Part shown: positions 349 through 20,199 of the stretch, one piece after another
Layout: every line of letters starts with the position of its first letter
Numbering within the stretch: the first letter of the stretch is position 1
From: Schmidtea polychroa
Taxonomy: Eukaryota
DNA length: 64,000 nt
Direction: 5' to 3'
Assembly (NCBI GenBank): GCA_044892525.1
Contig: CM097885.1
Location: 8,062,001 to 8,126,000, forward strand
Program-made: the position numbers and the translations under genes
Notes under the pieces: generated by a model
The model's database searches: none
What the model was told of the DNA's origin: nothing
Seen by the model: the letters and a program-made list of their open reading frames with translations, nothing else

Positions 349-505
349 ATTTTTTAAATTTTTTATTATATTTTAAAAACTATATTTAACTTGCAACAGG
401 TGCTGCTATCTTGTATATTATTTGTCGATTTTTGATATAAAATTAATATAGTTACTTTGTTTTATTTTTAAAATAAATTTACAAAAAATAATTAACTAAA
501 ATTTA

Positions 506-851
506 TTAATTAACACATTCGCAATCGTCATCTTTACATTTCATAACCTTTTCGATGGGATGATCTATACAATCATTTTTAATATTTTCCAGATCTTTAG
601 CTTCATCTATAGGCTCATCAATTTCTTGGGTGTCATTAGTTTCTTAACTATCATCGGTTTCTTCAACTTCCTGATCATCAATTCCAGAATCTTGACTCTC
701 TGATTTATTTAATATGCTAGAAACATTTAATATGTCATCGATTTTTACACCACTTATTTCTGATAGTTTTTCCAAGAAAAAGATGATTATATATTTAAAT
801 AATAAATATTTCGAAAATTAATTAATCATATTAACCTTTTTCTACAGTCAT
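506..851 (-). pseudogene. Degenerate inverted paralog of the small acidic spliced gene at 7688-8040
   Basis: Translates MTVEK...SQDSG...DDDCECVN*. It has an in-frame TAA at ~645 and the splice acceptor AG is lost. Confidence 0.75.
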
Positions 852-981
852 TATTAACAATTTAAAACTAAAATATAAGTTTGTTTATACATTGTCTTTG
901 TTTAGGTTTGCATGTGTTTTGCATTAATATTGCAATTTCATCGTTAATAAAGTGAACAACAAATATGATTAAATACATTTA

Positions 982-1366
982 TTAAATTTCAAATTTTTTA
1001 TACAACAACCAAGCTAAACAATGTTGACCACATGTTTGAGTCAATGGATTTTGAAACATAGTTTTATTATACACAATAGGTTTTCCCATTGTTTGTAGTT
1101 TTGATATCATCAAAGCCGGATAATAGAAACCCATAGGATCGAACACGAATATATTACCAGGTTTCATATATATAGCTATCCAGTGTTCTCCACCAAGATG
1201 AGACGATTGAGTATTGACGATTATGGCTTGATTATTGCTCAAATATGGAATTTTATCGAGAGGAAAAACTCCTACAAATTCATTTCCTAATATTTATTTT
1301 CCAATTTGATTAACCTGAACAGAACTACTTTAATAAATTAAACAGTATAAAAAAAACTTACTCCAT
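982..1366 (-). CDS. Adenain-like cysteine (maturation) protease; short intron after ATG-GA (~1325-1361) and an apparent 1-nt frameshift near 1290
   Basis: Motifs FVGVFPLD, GGEHW (His), FDPMG (Asp) and QNPLTQTCG (Gln/Cys); GTAAGT donor at 1361. Confidence 0.85.
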
Positions 1367-2614: not shown

Positions 2615-2973
2615 TTTGCAAATATAGTTCCATGTCCTTTCATTCGTTGGTTTATACGTGATATTCCATGTCCTTTACGTTTTGGAGCTGGGGCTGGAGG
2701 CGTATCTTTTTGAAACATACCAGCAACTCCAGGTAGAACCTTCCCTAACTCAGCTAAAGCATTTGTTTTTAGGGATGGTAAAATATTCTGTTCATTCATA
2801 ATCACGTCTTTAGCAGTTTTCATACCAAAATTACCAATACATTTAAGAATAGGTAATGCAAATCTCCCTATTGTTTTTAACCAACCTGATCCGTACTGTT
2901 TACCAACGAAATATGGTAATTCACCGCCAGATTGCCTATCACTATACATACTAATAATATCTGAATTAGCCAT
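2611..2973 (-). CDS. Conserved Polinton/adintovirus small virion protein (QxGG...QxGxG followed by an amphipathic helix)
   Basis: RQSGGELPYFVGKQYGSGWLKTIGRFALPIL; located between penton and major capsid genes. Confidence 0.7.
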   Translation of the reverse strand: MANSDIISMYSDRQSGGELPYFVGKQYGSGWLKTIGRFALPILKCIGNFGMKTAKDVIMNEQNILPSLKTNALAELGKVLPGVAGMFQKDTPPAPAPKRKGHGISRINQRMKGHGTIFAK

Positions 2974-3977
2974 CTACTTTACGAAAATGTAATGTCAAAT
3001 GAGTTTTCGAATCTTTCGGAAAGTTTATAAGTTTTCCACTATCATCACGAATATTTATTTCTATATTGTTTATACATGAGCTTGAAATTGGTAAATACAT
3101 GGGATTATCTATATTTATATTGACAACTTCGTCGTGTTCATATTTTCCAATCCACACTGATTTCAAAAGAGGAACACTGGAATCACCGACAATGATGGGC
3201 TCAATAATATTAGTATATATGAACATTTGTTGATGATGTTCCAGTATTCTTGGTTTACGTATACCAGCCGATTTCTCCCGATATTGTTGCTTCTCTAATC
3301 CAAGTGTATTTGTCAAATTTTTATCAAATGTAACTTCGCGAATGTCATCATTCAAACTGAAGGTAAATAGCAAATCTTTCACAATGTCCAAACTTTTAAA
3401 TATGTGTGAACAATTGGACTTTAAATATTTAAGTAGCACATCAAGTTTATCAATATATAATTCGTCAGCAAAGGTGAATGATTCTTCAACTTCATTATTA
3501 TATGACACGGATATTTTGATTTCTTCTTTCATTACACTGTTTGCTTCAAATAGACCAAAGCGTAATAAATATTCTGTTTCCATAACTTCATTTTTCAACT
3601 TATTGCAACCCATTCGTTTGGCATCTTCAATAGTTTCGAATATTATTGTAAATGGTTTAAAATCACAACTAATATTTAATCCCTCCTTGTAAAACATATA
3701 GCAATGCTGATCTAATATTTGATTTGGAATATGATATGTTTTATCATAATTACTGATACAAAGATACCACTACATGTTTTCATAGCATTCCTTTTGAAAT
3801 CAATCTTACATTGACTATAAAATGGAAATGTGTTGTACACGAATGTAAAATCGTGCAGTGCAACTTCCCAGTCACCATTTAAAGAAATCGGATTCTGGAG
3901 ATTGACCATGAATTTACTGGCTTGATTATATGGATGAATTAATGGGCAGCTATTGCTAGGTAAAATAGTATAAAAAT

Positions 3978-3981
<4 letters not shown>
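2966..3981 (-). CDS. Minor capsid protein (penton), split by a frameshift near 3760
   Basis: N-terminal FYTILPSNS..N..SKF...L..PISLNGDWEVAL; C-terminal FIYTNIIEP.IVGD..VPLL..IEINIRD..G..I.F..LTLHFRK. Confidence 0.85.
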
Positions 3982-5229
<1,248 letters not shown>

Positions 5230-5290
5230 TACAACAAGAAGATTTAATATTAAATTTAATGTCGGGTAATGAAGGATTAGCACCCATTGT

Positions 5291-5785
5291 TTATGATCGA
5301 CTTCCTATTATTCCACCTAATAATGATATTGCTAAAGGTATCAATGCACCGATAAATCCCCCTTGTTGTTTATATATAATTTTTCTCATTTGTTGACGAT
5401 TTTTATTATTTACTAATGATAACAAAGGTTTCCTATGTTTACTCAATAATTGCTTTTTAGATTTACTGATTTTAATCTTGCCTTTGACTACGTTAAGTAT
5501 AATATCGAGTAAATCATCGACAACATAATTTGGAAATGATTGCAAAATACTGTTTCTTTTCATACTTGGTGCCTTTAACAATGTATTAAAAAACGGGAAA
5601 CTCCGATGATTTTTAACAATTTTTACACTCTTAGTGGTTTTACAATTAGGTTTAGGTTTAGGATTTTTCGAAAAAAGATTCATTGCAGGAAAATTTTCTG
5701 TAAAAAGTTCTTTAGATGGAGTATAACTAGTTGTTGGTGGAACTATTGGTTGTTTTTTATTTGATATCCTTGTTTTTGAAAACAT
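5291..5785 (-). CDS. Basic core protein with C-terminal QxGGF + hydrophobic tail (Polinton/adintovirus-type, probable adenain substrate)
   Basis: LNVVKGKIKIS..KK.LL.KHRK.L..L...KQQGGFIGALIPLAISLLGG. Confidence 0.7.
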   Translation of the reverse strand: MFSKTRISNKKQPIVPPTTSYTPSKELFTENFPAMNLFSKNPKPKPNCKTTKSVKIVKNHRSFPFFNTLLKAPSMKRNSILQSFPNYVVDDLLDIILNVVKGKIKISKSKKQLLSKHRKPLLSLVNNKNRQQMRKIIYKQQGGFIGALIPLAISLLGGIIGSRS

Positions 5786-5891
5786 GATTTATATGTTTTG
5801 AACTTTGTTTTGAACTTTGTTTATAATCGATGATTTAATGAGCTCGTGCTCAATTTGTATATAAAGACTAATTTTCATAAATGATTTAATA

Positions 5892-6329
5892 ATGTTAGCA
5901 AATATAAATTACCGAAGAACTTTTGATGTATCGAATATGAGGTTCCCATTAGGAAAACCCCAGCAAATTATCAATAGAAGCGGGAAATATCCGATAATAT
6001 TTTTCAAGAATGGTAAATGTAGAATCATGGGATGTAAGAAACCTTTGGATATTAATAAATTACAATATCGAATAAATAATTTCAAAATCCAATCAATTAC
6101 CGTTACTATGGATATGGGACATAGTATCAATCTATATAACATGTCGAAAAAATGTGATTGTATGTTTGAACCGGAATTGTTTCCGGCACTAAGACTATTA
6201 AAATATAACCCTATATGTGTCAACGTGTTTGCTAGTGGAAAGGTTGTCATGCTGGGGTTGAGAAATTTAGAGTATAGAGAATTTGTTGACAATGTTCGAA
6301 ATGAGATAATTTCATTGGTCGATTTCTAA
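5892..6329 (+). CDS. TATA-box-binding protein (TBP)-like protein
   Basis: Two TBP-like repeats: IIFFKNGKCRIMGCK and FEPELFPAL...VNVFASGKVVMLG; TATATAAA upstream at ~5858. Confidence 0.75.
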   Translation: MLANINYRRTFDVSNMRFPLGKPQQIINRSGKYPIIFFKNGKCRIMGCKKPLDINKLQYRINNFKIQSITVTMDMGHSINLYNMSKKCDCMFEPELFPALRLLKYNPICVNVFASGKVVMLGLRNLEYREFVDNVRNEIISLVDF

Positions 6330-6401
6330 TTGGTTAATTTCTAATTGGTTATTGATTGATTTAAACAAAAGGTTTTTTGTTTAGAATTCATTTATTTCAC
6401 T

Positions 6402-6819
6402 ATGTACAAAATTCCAAGCGCAGCAAATCTAATGAAAGATATTGATGACTATGGTAAATTTATAATTTTCATTTTCACATTTTCTTTTTATATTTATTAT
6501 TTTAGAAAAATATTTAGAAGTGATGTTGAATCGGATAAAATATTATTACCCGCAAATTACAGAAATAATCAAGGATAGAGAACCTGAAATCATTCCGGAT
6601 CTGATATTCTATGCCACTCAAATTCGAATCATGGAGGTATTCCATCAATTCCTATGGGATCTGAAGATCAGTAGGACCATGAAACAAATGGAGCCGGAAT
6701 ACCAATGCATCATCGGATGCTCATGCTGTGCCGATCGATATCGGCGATATGTTGAATGGGAGTTAGTGAAAACTCTGAGAAGGTTTCACTACTCCCGGAT
6801 TGTAGATAAAGGATATTAA
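6402..6819 (+). CDS. Hypothetical protein, two exons (intron 6454-6505), CxxxCxCC motif
   Basis: MYKIPSAANLMKDIDDY|EKYLEVMLN... joined in frame; AATAAA at the stop. Confidence 0.65.
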
Positions 6820-7143
6820 TAAATGTATTTTTTGTTTCTATCGTGTTTTTTATATTTGAAATAGTAATAAATAGTAATAATATAAATAGTAATAATAATA
6901 GAAATGGAAATAATATAAATAGTAATAATATGACCCATAAATAATAATAAAATATAAATAATAATAAAACATAAATAATAATAAAACATAATAATATGTC
7001 ACATTAATAATATGAACATAAATGTAGCATTAATGCAAATGACATACAAATTTAAACAATGACATGCTATAATCTAATTAGTTGATAGGTATGAGTCAAA
7101 GGTATAAAAACCCTGTAACATTTCAATTTAATCATTATTCACT

Positions 7144-7554
7144 ATGACCAAGAAAATTTCATGCACCGAAAAACCTAAAGAAATGGTACAACCAGTTCAA
7201 ATGTTCCACAATTATAAAATGTATTTTTTGAAAGAAGAAATCAATATGAAATTGGTTGCACCAGTCAAGCTAATTCCAACTAAATTTCAATTCTTATCCG
7301 GCACGCTTTCAATGATTGATGTCAAAACTATTGATGATGTTTTTAAACGGTTAGATTCGAATCTATCGTGTAATCAACATGCATGGTTCAACAATAGATA
7401 TGCAAGATTTTATGATGCTTTTGATGAAATCAGTTTCAAAGAAAATGAAAATTGGTATATAACAATTGCAATCCAGGGATATAAAGTTGATAATAATGAT
7501 GTATATTCTCCTATTTGGAAAATTATGTCTGCTAGACTTTTACAAATATTTTAA
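7144..7554 (+). CDS. Hypothetical element protein
   Basis: 136-aa ORF with TATAAAA ~40 nt upstream and AATAAA downstream. Confidence 0.6.
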   Translation: MTKKISCTEKPKEMVQPVQMFHNYKMYFLKEEINMKLVAPVKLIPTKFQFLSGTLSMIDVKTIDDVFKRLDSNLSCNQHAWFNNRYARFYDAFDEISFKENENWYITIAIQGYKVDNNDVYSPIWKIMSARLLQIF

Positions 7555-7687
7555 TGTTATATTTAATAAATGTATTAGTCATATTTGTTTTTCTCTTTAT
7601 TAATTGCAACATAAATGCAAATGACATGCAAATTTAACAAAGAAAAATCTATAAACAAACTTATAATATAGTTTTAAAGTGATGAAA

Positions 7688-8040
7688 ATGACTGCAGAAA
7701 AAGGTTAACATGATTAATTAATTACCGAATTATTTATTATTTAGAATTTGTAATCAACTTTTTGTTGGAAAAGTTAGCAGAAATAGCTGGTGTAAAAATT
7801 GAGGACATATTATCTATTACAAATGCCTTAAATATCGGTTGGATAGTTGAGAGTCAAGATTCAGGATTTGATGATGAGGAAGAAACTCAAGAAATTGATG
7901 ACGAAATCTATGAACCTATAGATGAACCTATAGAGGAACCTAAAGATGAACCTAAAGATAATATTACGAATGATTGTATTGATCATGTCGTTGAAAATAT
8001 AATGAAATGTGGAGATGACGACTGCGAATGTGTTAATTAA
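7688..8040 (+). CDS. Small acidic protein, two exons (41-nt intron 7704-7744)
   Basis: MTAEK|EFVINFLLEK joined in frame; diverged paralog at 506-851. Confidence 0.7.
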
Positions 8041-8110
8041 TAAATTTTAGTTAATTATTGTTTGTAAATTTATTTAAAATTTTATTTAAAAATCAAACAA
8101 AATAACTATA

Positions 8111-8637
8111 TTAATTTTTATTTAAAAATCGGGATAAAACATACAAAATAGCAACACCTGTTGCAAGTTTTATATAGTTTTTAAATTTCATTTTGTGTTC
8201 ATCGATTTTCTTCGCATTTCTGGCGAGTTGATTCAGTACGCCCCATCCGCCATTGGCTTCAATCCATGGTTGAAACTTTGACTTGATTATCTAGAAAATT
8301 AATATTAATAAAATATAGATTATAAAAGTATTACTTCTTGAGACCACTGATTATAATGTTCAGAGTCCCATAAACTTTTTTCTATTATAATCTTCATATA
8401 AGCGAACCCTACTAGTATTCGGGTCCACTTCATCTCATCGTCACATAGGCAGTTAAAAATCCTATGAAAATAGAATTTTTTCGTTTCGAGGCAATCGGAA
8501 TTGAGCATATCCTCATAATCGATATGATTTCCTTCGATAATATTTTCGGTCCGGTCGACCAGGAAACTGAGGCTTTCCACAATCTTCTTGTTGATAACTT
8601 CGCTTAAAAGATTTTCCATAAAATTTGGTTGAGACAT
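8111..8637 (-). CDS. Bcl-2 family protein (~160 aa), two exons (44-nt intron 8291-8334)
   Basis: BH1-like LCDDEMKWTRILVGFAY; BH2 QPWIEANGGW; C-terminal anchor KLATGVAILYVLSRFLNKN*. Confidence 0.85.
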
Positions 8638-8742
8638 TTCTACAATAATTTAAAATATGATGTTTTATTTATACTAATACCGTAAGATTTTGATTGGTTG
8701 ATAGACTATAAATGTAAAAGAAAAGTTTTGATTTGATACACC

Positions 8743-9213
8743 ATGAAAACTATATTCATATTGCTAATTATTATAACGAGTGTGTGCTCACACAATACAA
8801 CAATAACAGTGGAGTCTTTTAATAAGTCAATATGTGTTTTATATATTCTCAACAAACCAAAATGGTCAAAGCATCCAGGAAAAAGAATATCTCAAAGATT
8901 GGAGAATTTAGAAAACAGTTATGAACTATCATTTGCATATATACAAAATATAAAAATTAAATTGATTGATCATATTGAAGTTTTCAATAACTCTAATGTT
9001 GAAAATAAAAAGAATATGAAAATTATTGATAAGAAGTATGATTATTTGTTAAAAAAGACCGAATTATTATTAAGAGAAATTCAAACAATCAAAGGATCAA
9101 TAGAATATCTGAAAATCAATTCAACGTTACCAATTTCAAACAATATTGCTGCGAATACTAGTACATCAATATTTAGTTTACCTTTGTTAATCTTGCATTA
9201 TTTTATTGTTTAA
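8743..9213 (+). CDS. Secreted/surface protein: signal peptide, coiled coil, hydrophobic C-terminus
   Basis: MKTIFILLIIITSVCS; heptad-like centre; STSIFSLPLLILHYFIV*; TATAAAT upstream. Confidence 0.6.
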   Translation: MKTIFILLIIITSVCSHNTTITVESFNKSICVLYILNKPKWSKHPGKRISQRLENLENSYELSFAYIQNIKIKLIDHIEVFNNSNVENKKNMKIIDKKYDYLLKKTELLLREIQTIKGSIEYLKINSTLPISNNIAANTSTSIFSLPLLILHYFIV

Positions 9214-9532: not shown

Positions 9533-9569
9533 TTTAAATAAATTGAAAGATAATAGGTTAGAAAAAAAA

Positions 9570-10640
9570 ATATGATTAAGAAAGACAGCGGCAATACAGT
9601 TGCAAGTTTAATAAAGAAAGATGCAATTCAGATGCAATATTAAAGTCATTCAGTAATTTTAAAAAATAATATTAAGGATGTTTAATAATAGTATTAATTT
9701 AAATAGTAAAAATATCAATAATAATAATATTAATTATAATAGTAATATTTTGAAATAATAATAATGATTCATAAAAATTAATGCTAGGAGTTACATGTCT
9801 TTGTTCTAACTTAGAAAAATTTTGAAAAAGTATGAGTCATAAAAAATTTTTGCTATGGGGGGGGGGGTTACATGCCTTTGTTTTGACTTAGAAAAATTTT
9901 CAAAAAGTATGAGTCATAAAAAATTTTTACTATGGGGGGGATACATGTCTTTGTTCTAACTTAGAAAAATTATGAAAAAGTATAAGTCATAAAAATTTTT
10001 TTGCAGGGGGGGTGGGGATACATGTCTTTGTTTTGACTTAGAAAAATTTTGAAAAAGTATGAGTCATAAAAAATTTTTACTATGGGGGGGATACATGTCT
10101 TTGTTCTAACTTAGAAAAATTATGAAAAAGTATAAGTCATAAAAATTTTTTTGCAGGGGGGGTGGGGGATACATGTCTTTGTTTTGACTTAGAAAAATTT
10201 TGAAAAAGTATGAGTCATAAAAATTATTGGCTATGGGGGGGGGGGGGTTACATGTCTTTGTTTTGACTTAGAAAAATTTTGAAAAAGTATGAGTCATAAA
10301 AATTTTTTGCTAGGGGGGGTGGGGGGATACATGTCTTTGTTCTAACTTAGAAATATTTTGAAAAAGTATGAGTCATAAAAATTTTTTTTTTGCTAGGGGG
10401 GGGTACATGTCTTTGTTTTGACTTAGAAAAATTTTGAAAAATATATATGACTCATGCTTTTCATCCGACATGATGGGTTTGAACCGTCGTAGAACAAAGA
10501 CCATGAGTCATACACACATATATGATACACCCACATGACCCCTGACTCACCCTCTACACGATGAGTCATCAATCGATGAGTCATCACTGAAAAGTGATGA
10601 GTCATAGGTCTTTGTGCCAGCGGGCTCACATCCACCTACT
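9570..10640. repeat. Right TIR of element A, with ~9 tandem 73-79-bp units (TGAGTCA + G-run)
   Basis: Units start at ~9793, 9870, 9943, 10020, 10093, 10171, 10250, 10329 and 10406; ends CCTACT at 10640. Confidence 0.9.
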
Positions 10641-11260
10641 TTAATGAATTTAAAACATTTCGACGAAAATATGATACGAGAAAAAGCAACTATTTTATAT
10701 AAAGAATACCCAGATGATCTTGAAAATGGTCCAATCGACGAATGTTTACATTTTAAACATGTAAATTTAATATCGGATAACTTAACAGCATTATCTAAAT
10801 CTGAGCAAATTTTAAGAACAATAATTGAATCGCAAATTGAATGCACTTTTCCGAATATAACAACAGCTCTACGAATATATTTAAGTATCGCCTGTACAAA
10901 TTGTAGCGAGAATGGTCGTTTTCAACTCTCAAGAGAATAAAAAATCATCTAAGATCATCTTTAGGACAATACAAATTAATTAATTTAAGTATTTTGTCAA
11001 TAGAATCGAATGTCTTTGAGAAACTGTATCACAAGAAAATTATAGATATATTTGCTAAAAATAAATGCCGCAAAAGACATATTTAAATTAAAATTTAATA
11101 TTTAATTCACATATTTATATAAATTTTTTGAATTTTGTTTTGCGTAAATACATTTAAGTTTTGAATTTTTGAAAATAAAATTGAATTTTTATAATAAAAG
11201 TATGTAGGGGTGCAAAATTTTTTTTAGCCCAGGGCGCTCAAACTTATTAATACGGCCATG
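10641..11260 (+). mobile_element. hAT (ZMYM1-like) transposase C-terminal dimerization-domain relic and right end; insertion target of element A
   Basis: TFPNITTALRIYLSIACTNCSE/RSFSTLKRIKNHLRSSLGQ..L..LSILSIE; end ...TACGGCCATG. Confidence 0.8.
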
Positions 11261-12589
11261 AGTAGGTCAGAAATTAATTGTTGATAAAATAAGTGTCGAA
11301 AATTTGTGTTAGATAGGAAAATTAATTTTTCATCTATAGTCACGACGCATTACGATCCCGGTTCATTATTATTAACAATTTTAGTGATGGCAAGTACCTT
11401 GCAAAACTAAGAGGTCTAATATATTGCCTTGGTTTGATTATCCTAAAATCTTAAAAGACTATTGGGAAAAAAGAAAGACAGGTTTAACAGGTAAAAGCCA
11501 CTAGGTTTAATTATGCCGTTGTTACCGCTGTTAGAATTTTGGTAGGTTGAGTTAAACATGTGAAAACCTTAAGACTGATGCTAAATGATAAATCTTGATA
11601 GGGTCTTATTTATAGATTCATTGAAACATAGACTACGATATTTATTGTTGAAATTATACTGAATTAGTAAATGTCCTAAACTATTGTAAAACATTCCATA
11701 ATCAATTTCTGCTACTTCTATTAATCATATTTAATTTAATTTTATACAAGTTTTTATTTTAGATATAATGTCCGATTTTGAATATGAACTTTATAATTTC
11801 AGTTTTGGTTAAATGTTATTCAAAATTAAAAACGCTGATATAAGGTTTCCGATAAAGAAGGGTCATAAATGCAAAATTGGGTATCTATGGTACTTTTTTG
11901 TATGTATGAGTCACAATCGTTTATATAGTTTAATTTAAAAGGATTCAAGATGGGAACAATGTTTATGATTTAGTTAGTTAAGGGTGCGATATAAAGGTTA
12001 TGAGGGACCGCTTTAAAAAGGTCAACGGGATTGTTTGTTCAAATGTAATGAATATGATTATAATAAAAATGTAGCATATAAATCATACAAACACATTGTA
12101 CATGTGAGGTGTTTTCAGCTGAGAGTTAAATATTTCAAAAAATTATTAAGATAATTTTAAAAGATAAATAATTGACTATTTAAAATAACTTTGAAAATAA
12201 TTTTTTAATCGGATCGTTTTTAAATACATATATTTTAAATATCGAAATTTTAATAAATGGTTTTTTGAAATATTTTATTTAACGCTGAAAATTTGTTTAG
12301 AAATTATACAATATTTCATTAAATAAATACTTAGAATTATGACGTTAACTTTTGAACCGGATTTAAAAATTAATTTAGAAGATGTGTTAGCAGCTTCTAA
12401 TAGTACACATATTTCTATTAAACAATTTAAAGTCTGTTGTGGAAAAGCATTATATATAACTTAATTTGAAAGAATGATAACAGTACTTATGACTCAATTA
12501 AATAAGGGTTGATAGAAAGTGGGAAAAGAAGGTTACTTTAAATAAGTCAAAAATTATTGCTAGTGTTTAATATTTATCGGTTTTCCTTG

Positions 12590-14060
12590 AGTTTCTATTT
12601 TATGCTTCAACAGCTTTGTGTAGCCAATGTCCCATTTATCAGCCATAAAAACATTTTGATTCTTTTTTATAATATCTAGTTATATCGGGTTATTTATCTT
12701 TAAAGTATTCTTTGCTTTTTGAAATCGTTCCATCTCCGTTATTGTCTTCCCAAATTTGGCTTTGATACTGCATATGTGGTCTTGCTTCGTTTTCTTGACT
12801 TCTTCTACTGGCAACTATAGTTGTATACCAAATTGTTTTTGCAGCTCTATACCACCAATTACCTCTGGGGTCATATATCTTACTATCGTAAACTTTACCC
12901 TTCTTTTCCTGCCATTTATTCCTATTTCTAATATTGCTTTACCTTTCGTTTCTAAAACACTATTATATGCACATCTCAATGTATCAGTCGTTGTTGTTAG
13001 TTCTACATCTTTAAGTTTTTCAAATTTGCTCCAAATCATGACATTTACTGTAGCTCCTGTATCTACCAAGCATCCCATCTTCTTGTCTTGTATTCTAATA
13101 ATTACACTTGGTCGGCCTTGTATTTTATGATAACAAATAATATCATTTTTCAATTCATCTATTGTGAGTATTTGTATTTTTTCTCTTTCTGCAAAATCCT
13201 TTTTATGAATCTGTTTACTTTTCTTATTACATTATTTTCTTCTTCCGTTACCTGCGTATCTATCACATCTTTTCTATCTCCTCTTCTATCGGGGCGTTGA
13301 TATTTGGGTATTCTCTGTATTTATCTTCTATTCTTTCATCACTTGGTTCGTCTATGAATGCTACGTATCTCTTGTCTGCTTGTCTTGTATCCTTTCTAGT
13401 TCCTTGATAACTTTGCCCTGCTTCGTATCGCTCTTGTTTTCTTCCAAAATTCTCATTGATTCTCCGATATCTCATTCTCTCCAAATTTGTGTAACAATCT
13501 GCCTCTTTATGATCTCCCAAAATACACCTCGTACACCTTATTTTTTGACAATCTCTTCTCACGTGTCCCGGGGTACCACACGCATAACATTCGACTACCT
13601 TTCTCTGCATCTGTGAACACTGACTTCTTTCATGTCCTTATCTTCCACATGTAGATCATGTAACTGCCTTCCTTGTTATGCAATATCTACTCAAATGTCC
13701 TACCTTGTGACATGTCAAACATTCGTTCTTAATTCTGTTCGGTCTTTCTTCTTCATACTCTCTCGGTTCGTTATTATATCTTGGTGATACAATATTTTAT
13801 TGCTTGATTTGTTACCGCGTCTCAAGACAAGAAGTAACGCGTCTATAACTTCTTGTTATATTCTGTTTTGGACTTTTTTCTCTCACTGCATAGATCTCTT
13901 CTGCAACTATACGAGATTCGTAACTTCTTGATTTCTTTCTTCACTTCTGTTGTTCCTTTGATGTCACTTTGACACAATTCTCGCTTTAAAGTCTTCTCGG
14001 TTGCACAGTGTAACAGCAGATATTCTGTTAAACTTTCTTTGTTTAACTCATGCCTCAATA
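12590..14060 (-). pseudogene. Degenerate Ty3/Gypsy gag (CCHC knuckles) and aspartic protease
   Basis: CLTCHKVGHLSRYC, CYACGTPGHVRRDC, CTRCILGDHKEADC; CLVDTGA; stops and frameshifts. Confidence 0.85.
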
Positions 14061-19464: not shown

Positions 19465-20199
19465 ATGTCAGTTCGAAATTTGCAAACGTTTGATCCTTTT
19501 ACTGAAAGTGAAGATAGACGGTCTTATCGGAATCTATATAAATCTTATATGTCGAGTATGTCAGAAAAAGCTTCTATTTTAAAAAGTTTGATCCATCAAA
19601 TACAAAAACGGTTTTATCGAAATCTATATAAATCTTATATGTCGAGTATATCAGAAAGAGCTCCTATTTTAGAAAGTTTTATCCATCAAATAGAAAACAT
19701 ATATGGTCTTGCCAGTAATCTTCAGGTAGAAGGTGCGACAGATGAATTAAAATCATCACCAGTGCGTCGAATGTTATGTTTAATTATTATAATCGACTTA
19801 GTGATATGTGTTCTTCTTTGGATAATATATTTGCAGCAACATCCACCTCTTATTGACAATTTGAAAAAGGAAGTTCTCAATTATACTTTTAACAATTCAT
19901 TATTCGATATGACCGTTTTATCCGGTTGTAGGTTTTTGTATTTAGAAATCGCTTATGGTTGTGTTAAATCACAATTTCCTTGGTATATTTCTGTATCTAC
20001 ATTAATTACCAGTGTGTTGTCCATTATTAAACTGGTTCTTAATATGGTTAATGATCGTGTTGTATATAAATATTTAATGATAATTCTTTCATTTATCGCC
20101 GCATGGATTGAAACAATATTTTTAATTTACCGTGTTTTGCCAAAAGAAAAAGTAGCTGAAAGGACCATGGAACACTATAGATTTATTTCTCAGCAATAA
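19465..20199 (+). CDS. Intronless MENTAL-domain (STARD3NL/MLN64 N-terminal-like) membrane protein
   Basis: SPVRRMLCLIIIIDL...LLWII, SLFD, YLMIILSFIAAWIETIFL..RVLP.E; four hydrophobic segments. Confidence 0.75.
   Translation: MSVRNLQTFDPFTESEDRRSYRNLYKSYMSSMSEKASILKSLIHQIQKRFYRNLYKSYMSSISERAPILESFIHQIENIYGLASNLQVEGATDELKSSPVRRMLCLIIIIDLVICVLLWIIYLQQHPPLIDNLKKEVLNYTFNNSLFDMTVLSGCRFLYLEIAYGCVKSQFPWYISVSTLITSVLSIIKLVLNMVNDRVVYKYLMIILSFIAAWIETIFLIYRVLPKEKVAERTMEHYRFISQQ

Follow-up and report, generated by a model that had tools for sequence, protein, structure and literature searches.

The window analysed here is the whole 64,000-nt stretch of Schmidtea polychroa DNA (assembly GCA_044892525.1, contig CM097885.1, positions 8,062,001 to 8,126,000 of the forward strand), and it opens inside a 10.8-kb element that lies between inverted repeats and runs from 178 nt before the window to position 10640. 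The hallmarks of a Polinton/Maverick are present, namely terminal inverted repeats, AG termini and a 6-bp target-site duplication in which the flanks agree at 5 of 6 bases. The features of this window copy are as follows.

1–355, no strand: left terminal inverted repeat, starting with AGTAGG 178 nt before the window
882–889, minus: YATAAACR box upstream of a small acidic, apparently spliced gene with an inverted twin on the other arm
982–1449, minus: adenovirus-type protease gene (Peptidase_C5 in another copy)
1394–2614, minus: putative major capsid gene, a label we presume; frame broken near the 5′ end, no capsid family in Pfam
2611–2973, minus: small conserved virion-block gene, "pX-like" (label coined here)
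2649–2656, minus: ATAAAC box (TATAAACC in the window copy), ~41 nt before the putative major capsid gene
2966–4032, minus: putative minor capsid gene, which we take from gene order to be the penton; two frames in the window copy, no Pfam match
3067–3074, minus: YATAAACR box within the penton ORF; the next gene lies 100 nt downstream
3978–5229, minus: rve integrase gene, interrupted by an AAT microsatellite at about 4607–4840
4045–4052, minus: ATAAAC box variant (GATAAACA) upstream of the putative penton gene
5060–5287, minus: small conserved Met-Gly ORF, 75 aa, with a Cys-Cys pair, overlapping the integrase 5′ end
5288–5295, minus: YATAAACR box over the core stop codon, ~65 nt before the integrase ATG
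5291–5785, minus: basic core-like ORF, 164 aa, labelled from composition and position; no Pfam match
5367–5374, minus: YATAAACR box within the core ORF; the small Met-Gly ORF lies 87 nt downstream
5818–5825, minus: YATAAACR box upstream of the basic core gene, also the junction of the missing ATPase gene
5858–5865, plus: canonical TATA box (TATATAAA), probably a promoter for host TBP; the TBP ATG lies 34 nt downstream
5892–6329, plus: Polinton TBP-like gene, 145 aa; both lobes present, lobe 1 without H1 and H2 in the model
6401–6819, plus: accessory gene of no family, with a predicted 54-nt GT-AG intron (6453–6506)
7103–7110, plus: canonical TATA box; the SSB-like gene lies 41 nt downstream
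7144–7554, plus: OB-fold protein like the T7 gp2.5-type ssDNA-binding proteins
7650–7657, plus: YATAAACR box upstream of the inverted twin of the acidic gene
8320–8637, minus: Bcl-2-like ORF, a weak match under the Pfam cut-off (E 0.019); TATA box at 8666–8673
8743–9213, plus: accessory ORF with hydrophobic N- and C-termini; TATA at 8707–8714, GATTGG at 8692–8697
9563–10640, no strand: right terminal inverted repeat, ending in CCTACT

The window copy is defective, with no ATPase or polymerase match and with interrupted integrase, penton and capsid frames. In other copies the TBP gene stands head-to-head with a series that runs ATPase, core, integrase, penton, pX, capsid, protease and polymerase; the head-to-head orientation to the virion block described in an earlier sequence-only reading thus holds, although the gene that faces TBP elsewhere is the packaging ATPase, which is missing here. 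Pfam matches the ATPase, integrase and adenoviral protease of other copies, with rve below its cut-off there and above it in the window copy, and finds no PolB or capsid family in those copies, where ORFs of fitting size and order are present; the capsid, penton and polymerase labels are putative and follow ORF size and gene order. One flank of the box at 5818–5825 matches the ATPase-upstream box of one subfamily and the other the core-upstream box of another, and the window copy is a chimera of two subfamilies joined at an ATAAAC box, which may be a recombination hot spot.

Several further observations were made along the way. Window positions 372–995 and 7602–8185 form an inverted duplication, 77–87% identical, with the small acidic gene in each twin behind a YATAAACR box. 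The Met-Gly ORF recurs at 54–83 aa, with a Cys-Cys pair or a single Cys, overlapping the integrase start in 11 loci, and its sequence looks like that of a lipid-anchored virion protein. Beyond the element, a remnant that we take to be hAT-like (~10644–11100) adjoins its right end, retrotransposon gag zinc-knuckle and protease-like fragments lie at 12815–13610 (minus strand), and a host MENTAL-domain gene, a single 244-aa ORF with a duplicated N-terminal peptide, lies at 19465–20199 (plus strand). Related Polintons (L098, L105, L106 and L058) carry phospholipase A2-like, KilA-N, RING and ubiquitin-conjugating (E2) genes, with ATAAAC 35–54 nt upstream of the phospholipase-like genes.

The ORF at 5892–6329 is unbroken on the plus strand and contains FKNGKCRIMG and EPELFPAL...FASGKVV, bearing out the description of an intact 145-aa frame with both TBP repeat signatures. 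Pfam PF00352 matches it at E 1.6e-15 and 57.1 bits, above the curated cut-off of 22.9, in a match confined to repeat 2 (residues 63–125), and every one of the 35 solved-structure sequences that match the ORF is a TBP or a TBP fusion. An AlphaFold model of the 145-aa protein, built from 99 relatives, has a pLDDT of 95.4, with strands in both lobes and helices in lobe 2 only. By VIA the model compares with solved TBPs at Z 12–13 and an rmsd of ~2.5 Å over 141–145 residues spanning both lobes, its residues 1–145 aligning on yeast TBP 66–240; the best non-TBP chain reaches Z 6.1, and Foldseek against solved TBPs gives E 1e-8. Profile and structure searches, the checks that the sequence-only reading had put forward, thus both return the TBP fold, and a two-lobed TBP saddle is confirmed for the modelled product.

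In the genome of the window we scored 150 full-length matches to the gene at 95–100% among 4145 candidates, so that at least 150 near-identical copies exist, which answers the proposed check for other copies; further own-genome subfamilies stand at ~58–60%, and six of six own-genome loci chosen by their ATPase alone carry both TBP and box. We found 107 homologues at 37–93% identity, and a profile search with an E limit of 1e-10 yields 741 representatives, cellular TBPs among them. Confirmed metagenome stretches number 179, the best 80 of which were fetched and, with one viral contig, make up 81 loci; a Polinton core gene is present in 36 of these 81 and in 25 of the 35 loci of at least 3 kb, and in the metagenome loci the TBP gene lies before the ATPase or after the protease. 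Longer or fused homologues do not occur among 84 candidates, which is weak evidence. TBP is thus no incidental cargo but belongs regularly to the gene set of a wide Polinton clade, and it is under purifying selection, with dN/dS of 0.17–0.33 in nine of ten pairs and the remaining pair saturated.

In a tree of 65 rows (row P0180 left out; comparison rows without an identified TRF2), a branch 1.5 changes per site long, with support of 100/100, sets all Polinton-type rows apart from the 11 rows of host, cellular, archaeal and NCLDV-like type. Recent capture of a host TBP is excluded by this long branch. The Polinton TBP may still have an ancient origin in the host lineage, as a topology test does not reject its grouping with host TBP (p-AU 0.32); the phylogeny suggested earlier delivers a separate long-branched clade. 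A scan of viral contigs with TBP returned one NCLDV-like TBP, L120, which groups with cellular TBPs outside the Polinton clade, and scans of viral contigs with cellular TBP, ATPase and capsid queries, as well as of phage and plasmid collections, returned nothing. The host genome looks AT-rich and animal-like, with four large chromosomes. Besides a single canonical TBP it contains no fewer than five divergent TBP paralogues (L133–L138), together with 13 TFIIB-family matches, with open frames of 301–310 aa, in two clusters, some ~7.9 kb apart (G000:C3:38.2–39.1 Mb and C1:23.8–24.2 Mb; L129, L130). The two TFIIB paralogues that we read are intronless and divergent, with no Polinton gene within 3 kb, and a canonical intron-containing TFIIB lies at C3:131.48 Mb.

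We then counted residues at functional positions in 135 relatives chosen by HMM, with gaps excluded and in yeast numbering, which was transferred via a plant-like TBP row and is consistent with the model-on-yeast alignment; residue roles other than those cited below follow the TBP structure literature. Three of the four intercalating phenylalanines of canonical cellular TBP are kept and one is lost: F116 persists in 114/115, F190 in 129/130 and F207 in 127/127, and the F99 column is Pro in 103 of 108 relatives, a register that may be off by one but shows no aromatic residue either way. The DNA face carries fixed changes (V122 to R, 114/115; T124 to M, 128/128; L205 to N, 126/127), N159 is replaced by Ser or Thr and V161 by Thr or Ser, and the V71 column is Asn in 71/102 and Val or Ile in 28/102. 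A 28-row alignment shows I194, V203 and L205 all altered; conservation in this alignment is inflated because its loci were selected with patterns containing EPELF, which makes the count over 135 relatives the fairer one. These three positions are the ones that gave yeast TBPm3 its changed TATA specificity (PMC1636458).

The C-terminal stirrup glutamates are kept at the sequence level (E188 in 128/130, E186 in 116/130), and such glutamates bind TFIIB in cellular TBP (PMC10005294). The basic H2 patch is gone: the helix is absent from the model, and absent or acidic in most of the 28 rows, being absent in the short clade and mostly acidic in the long clade; this lobe-1 patch is what binds TFIIA, Mot1, Brf1/2 and TAF1 (PMC7221094). 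A TFIIB profile run over ~100 loci, many of them short, finds no TFIIB-like ORF in loci that carry a YATAAACR-associated TBP; its single match is in L170 (G003:C86), a divergent Polinton in which, as one case, TBP and TFIIB genes lie adjacent at 11774–13041. The L170 TBP matches PF00352 at E 1.9e-11 and is without the stirrup glutamates, and its TFIIB gene encodes a zinc ribbon and cyclin repeats.

ATAAAC lies within 120 nt upstream of 59 of 68 virion-block genes (dereplicated, and dropped if the start could not be placed or if less than 120 nt lay upstream), a count that is not an independent test because the box was first spotted by eye in the upstream regions of the same loci. By gene, it precedes 19/19 ATPase, 3/3 core, 9/14 integrase, 8/10 penton, 7/7 pX, 10/10 capsid and 3/5 protease genes. 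On the reverse strand it occurs before 1 of the 68, with ~6.8 in shuffles, and it precedes 5 of 68 TBP, SSB and polymerase genes. ATAAAC is also the top hexamer found de novo; the base before it is T in 61%, C in 31% and A in 3% of sites, and the base after it is A in 84% and G in 15%, giving YATAAACR. Thirteen of 19 ATPase boxes lie 31–37 nt before the ATG, a spacing that resembles that of the canonical TATA boxes of TBP genes (11/27 at 34–39 nt). Boxes in coding DNA fall in different reading frames and use rare codons (ATA-AAC jointly expected 0.083), and eight TBP-clade virion blocks plus two short contigs have 2–10 boxes on the sense strand and none on the antisense strand. The own-family protease gene is preceded by TATAAAG rather than TATAAAC.

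Box and TBP also tend to go together across the elements compared. Position 1 of the box is T38:C6 in short-TBP elements and T7:C16 in long-TBP elements, a comparison of two clades only, and L143, which was found through its ATPase alone, has both TBP and box. As a small and weak control, four contigs of similar elements without detectable TBP have the box before 0 of 15 virion-block genes; their GC is 0.51–0.59 versus 0.28–0.47, and only one of the four is near-complete; profile searches can miss divergent TBPs, as with the TBP in G003, which was missed and then caught by Pfam. So few TBP-less controls were gathered because the viral-contig, phage and plasmid scans were near-empty. None of the five recognisable virion genes of L170, whose TBP is a divergent one, has the box upstream, and inspection by eye shows no other motif there. 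Within TBP genes themselves, YATAAACR occurs on the antisense strand at L154:4729, L156:4853, L158:5819, L172:987 and L174:980, which could reflect antisense-RNA feedback or chance.

The TATA boxes that had been reported at ~5858, 7103 and 8708 are present, at 5858, 7103 and 8707. By themselves they are weak, since the AT-rich window has 165 occurrences of TATAWAWR where 128 are expected, and they gain support from lying 34–41 nt before ATGs and from enrichment before the TBP genes of relatives, where canonical TATA is found upstream in 27/49 (14.4 in shuffles) and CCAAT in 10/49 (1.7). Because they are canonical and precede accessory genes and the TBP gene itself, these boxes are more likely host-TBP promoters than targets of the Polinton TBP. 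The TBP gene is represented in contigs from sequencing runs that are presumably RNA, uninformatively as to starts, strand and level; these contigs show poly(A) tails after two neighbouring accessory genes, both after an ordinary AATAAA, and one join across the predicted 54-nt intron. Poly(T) ends inside the virion block were rejected as transcript ends, as they sit on genomic A-runs and look like internal priming.

From these sequence patterns we propose that the Polinton TBP probably binds YATAAACR through a re-tooled DNA face, recruits host TFIIB and Pol II, and so acts as a late-gene switch. Canonical TATA boxes, in some cases joined by a CCAAT box, would let host TBP transcribe the accessory genes and the TBP gene. 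The Polinton TBP would occupy YATAAACR, which stands where a TATA box would, and its fixed polar substitutions would tolerate C at positions 1 and 7; as in TBP structures, lobe 1 presumably contacts the 3′ half, the one that carries the C. Docking of host TFIIB, by the kept C-terminal glutamates, is proposed because the elements with YATAAACR show no TFIIB gene. Loss of the basic H2 patch would leave the protein free of TFIIA, TAF1, Mot1 and Brf1, and every virion gene would be started from its own box, mostly embedded in the upstream gene. The suggestion of an element-specific transcription factor, made from the sequence at the outset, is supported by the fixed DNA-face changes, the kept TFIIB glutamates and the matching element-specific box.

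It is unlikely that the box, as a real promoter element, is read instead by a host factor (host TBP or a paralogue, or a Forkhead protein) or by another element protein, with the Polinton TBP assisting or acting elsewhere. The host does offer candidates, in its at least five divergent TBP paralogues and 13 TFIIB-family matches, and ATAAACA resembles the Forkhead site RTAAACA. Host TBP may also use the T form, since a crystal structure exists, going by the title of PDB 1qn3, of wild-type TBP bound to a C(-25) variant of the TATA box. The box is, however, strand-specific and at a fixed distance, with G after the hexamer in 15% of sites; GTAAACA is rare, at 0–1 per contig in 13 of 14 contigs; and the box recurs in elements from numerous unrelated metagenome contigs, while the four contigs without detectable TBP do not have it. 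As to another element protein, the constant neighbour has an SSB-like fold and no known transcription-factor fold: it adjoins TBP in 21/81 loci, its best fold match is middling (Z 7.4), and the ORF scores only 0.75–0.76 in the ESM Atlas. On the OB-fold result, this neighbour is no longer favoured as a TFIIB or TFIIA partner.

A decoy for host TBP partners, the second function that had been suggested, would soak up host TFIIB or other such partners and damp host transcription. Strong conservation of the TFIIB glutamates and loss of one intercalating Phe speak for it, yet it fits poorly and we judge it improbable, because the part that is lost is the lobe-1 surface for TFIIA, Mot1, TAF1 and Brf1 (binding roles from PMC7221094) and because it leaves the invariant new DNA-face residues and their matching box unexplained. 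The conserved DNA face would also suit some other role on DNA, for instance as a repressor of early promoters with a canonical TATA box or as a mark on termini or packaging sites, and KSHV ORF24 binds a replication origin as well (PMC6541308); with YATAAACR absent from both terminal repeats of the window copy and the box tracking virion-gene starts, this is very improbable. Close to negligible, and largely refuted, is the idea that the box serves polyadenylation or arises from the encoded protein sequence, with the TBP gene as passive cargo. ATAAAC does overlap AATAAA-like signals, and many boxes are close to where the upstream gene ends; against this, A precedes the hexamer in only 3% of sites, the pre-ATPase box is mostly non-coding and in the own family has no same-strand upstream gene, coding boxes fall in different frames, an ordinary AATAAA precedes both poly(A) ends seen behind accessory genes, and dN/dS is ~0.2.

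Binding of YATAAACR by the Polinton TBP itself is thus the reading that we carry forward, and we lean slightly towards a broader statement of it: that a wide clade of Polintons would run the smallest known early-to-late switch among Pol II-dependent DNA viruses, made of a 145–190-aa TBP of altered specificity that is blind to host regulators, its own YATAAACR and host TFIIB, in which TBP and box co-vary between lineages and from which L170 has moved to its own TBP–TFIIB pair. If true, the switch could act in trans for thousands of integrated copies, and Polintons would gain direct support as elements that behave like viruses and have a late programme. With a named protein and an 8-bp box in hand, the control of Polinton capsid genes becomes testable, and the box can help to annotate where genes start in such compact genomes. 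The Polinton TBP would also be a naturally occurring TBP of altered specificity, with changes at the three positions that were altered in TBPm3, and useful for studying TATA recognition.

The surrounding element resembles the Polintons/Mavericks/adintoviruses of Starrett et al. 2021 (PMC8502044) in its terminal inverted repeats, rve integrase, A32 ATPase and adenoviral protease, and in its Bcl-2-like and SSB-like accessory genes. A figure legend in that paper labels a "TBP" gene for MELD viruses; the readable text of the animal adintovirus maps (Suppl. Fig. S2) has no TBP label, and the examined portion of the paper describes no TBP family, residue analysis or promoter box. Keyword searches of the Polinton/Bamfordvirae literature found no such promoters, TBP family or TATAAAC box, an earlier mention being possible, and we found no paper that describes the pairing of this TBP family with YATAAACR. 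The protein shares with cellular TBP/TRF (PF00352) the two-lobed saddle and N69, Q158, F116, F190, P191, F207, E186 and E188, and differs in lobe 1, where H1 and H2 are absent (short clade) or H2 is acidic (long clade), and in the fixed F99P, V122R, T124M, N159S/T, V161T/S and L205N.

Among viral TBPs, those of NCLDVs and mirusviruses match the model at E 1e-7 and have likewise lost the lobe-1 signature for host regulators; they mostly have their own TFIIB and variable glutamates, whereas in YATAAACR Polintons no TFIIB is seen and the glutamates are kept (viral TBPs after PMC7221094). The vTBPs of beta/gamma-herpesviruses (KSHV ORF24, EBV BcRF1, HCMV UL87) give weak fold matches (E 0.009–0.03). 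They offer a parallel in operation: according to PMC6541308 and bioRxiv 10.1101/2025.08.25.672222, these too are virus-encoded TBP folds with a more polar DNA face, in which Asn replaces hydrophobic residues, and with a modified TATA box ~30 nt before structural genes, host Pol II being assumed. A modified box specific to structural genes is likewise what we find here (59/68 versus 5/68). In the same sources ORF24 is large and multi-domain, belongs to a complex of six members and binds Pol II directly; it is without the TFIIB glutamates and needs all four Phe, whereas the Polinton TBP is a bare 145–190-aa core that keeps the glutamates and is without one Phe; the late box is TATT in the herpesviruses and YATAAACR in Polintons. 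By analogy, then, the Polinton TBP would work like the herpesvirus vTBP–TATT system without being a member of it, as size, partners and box all differ.
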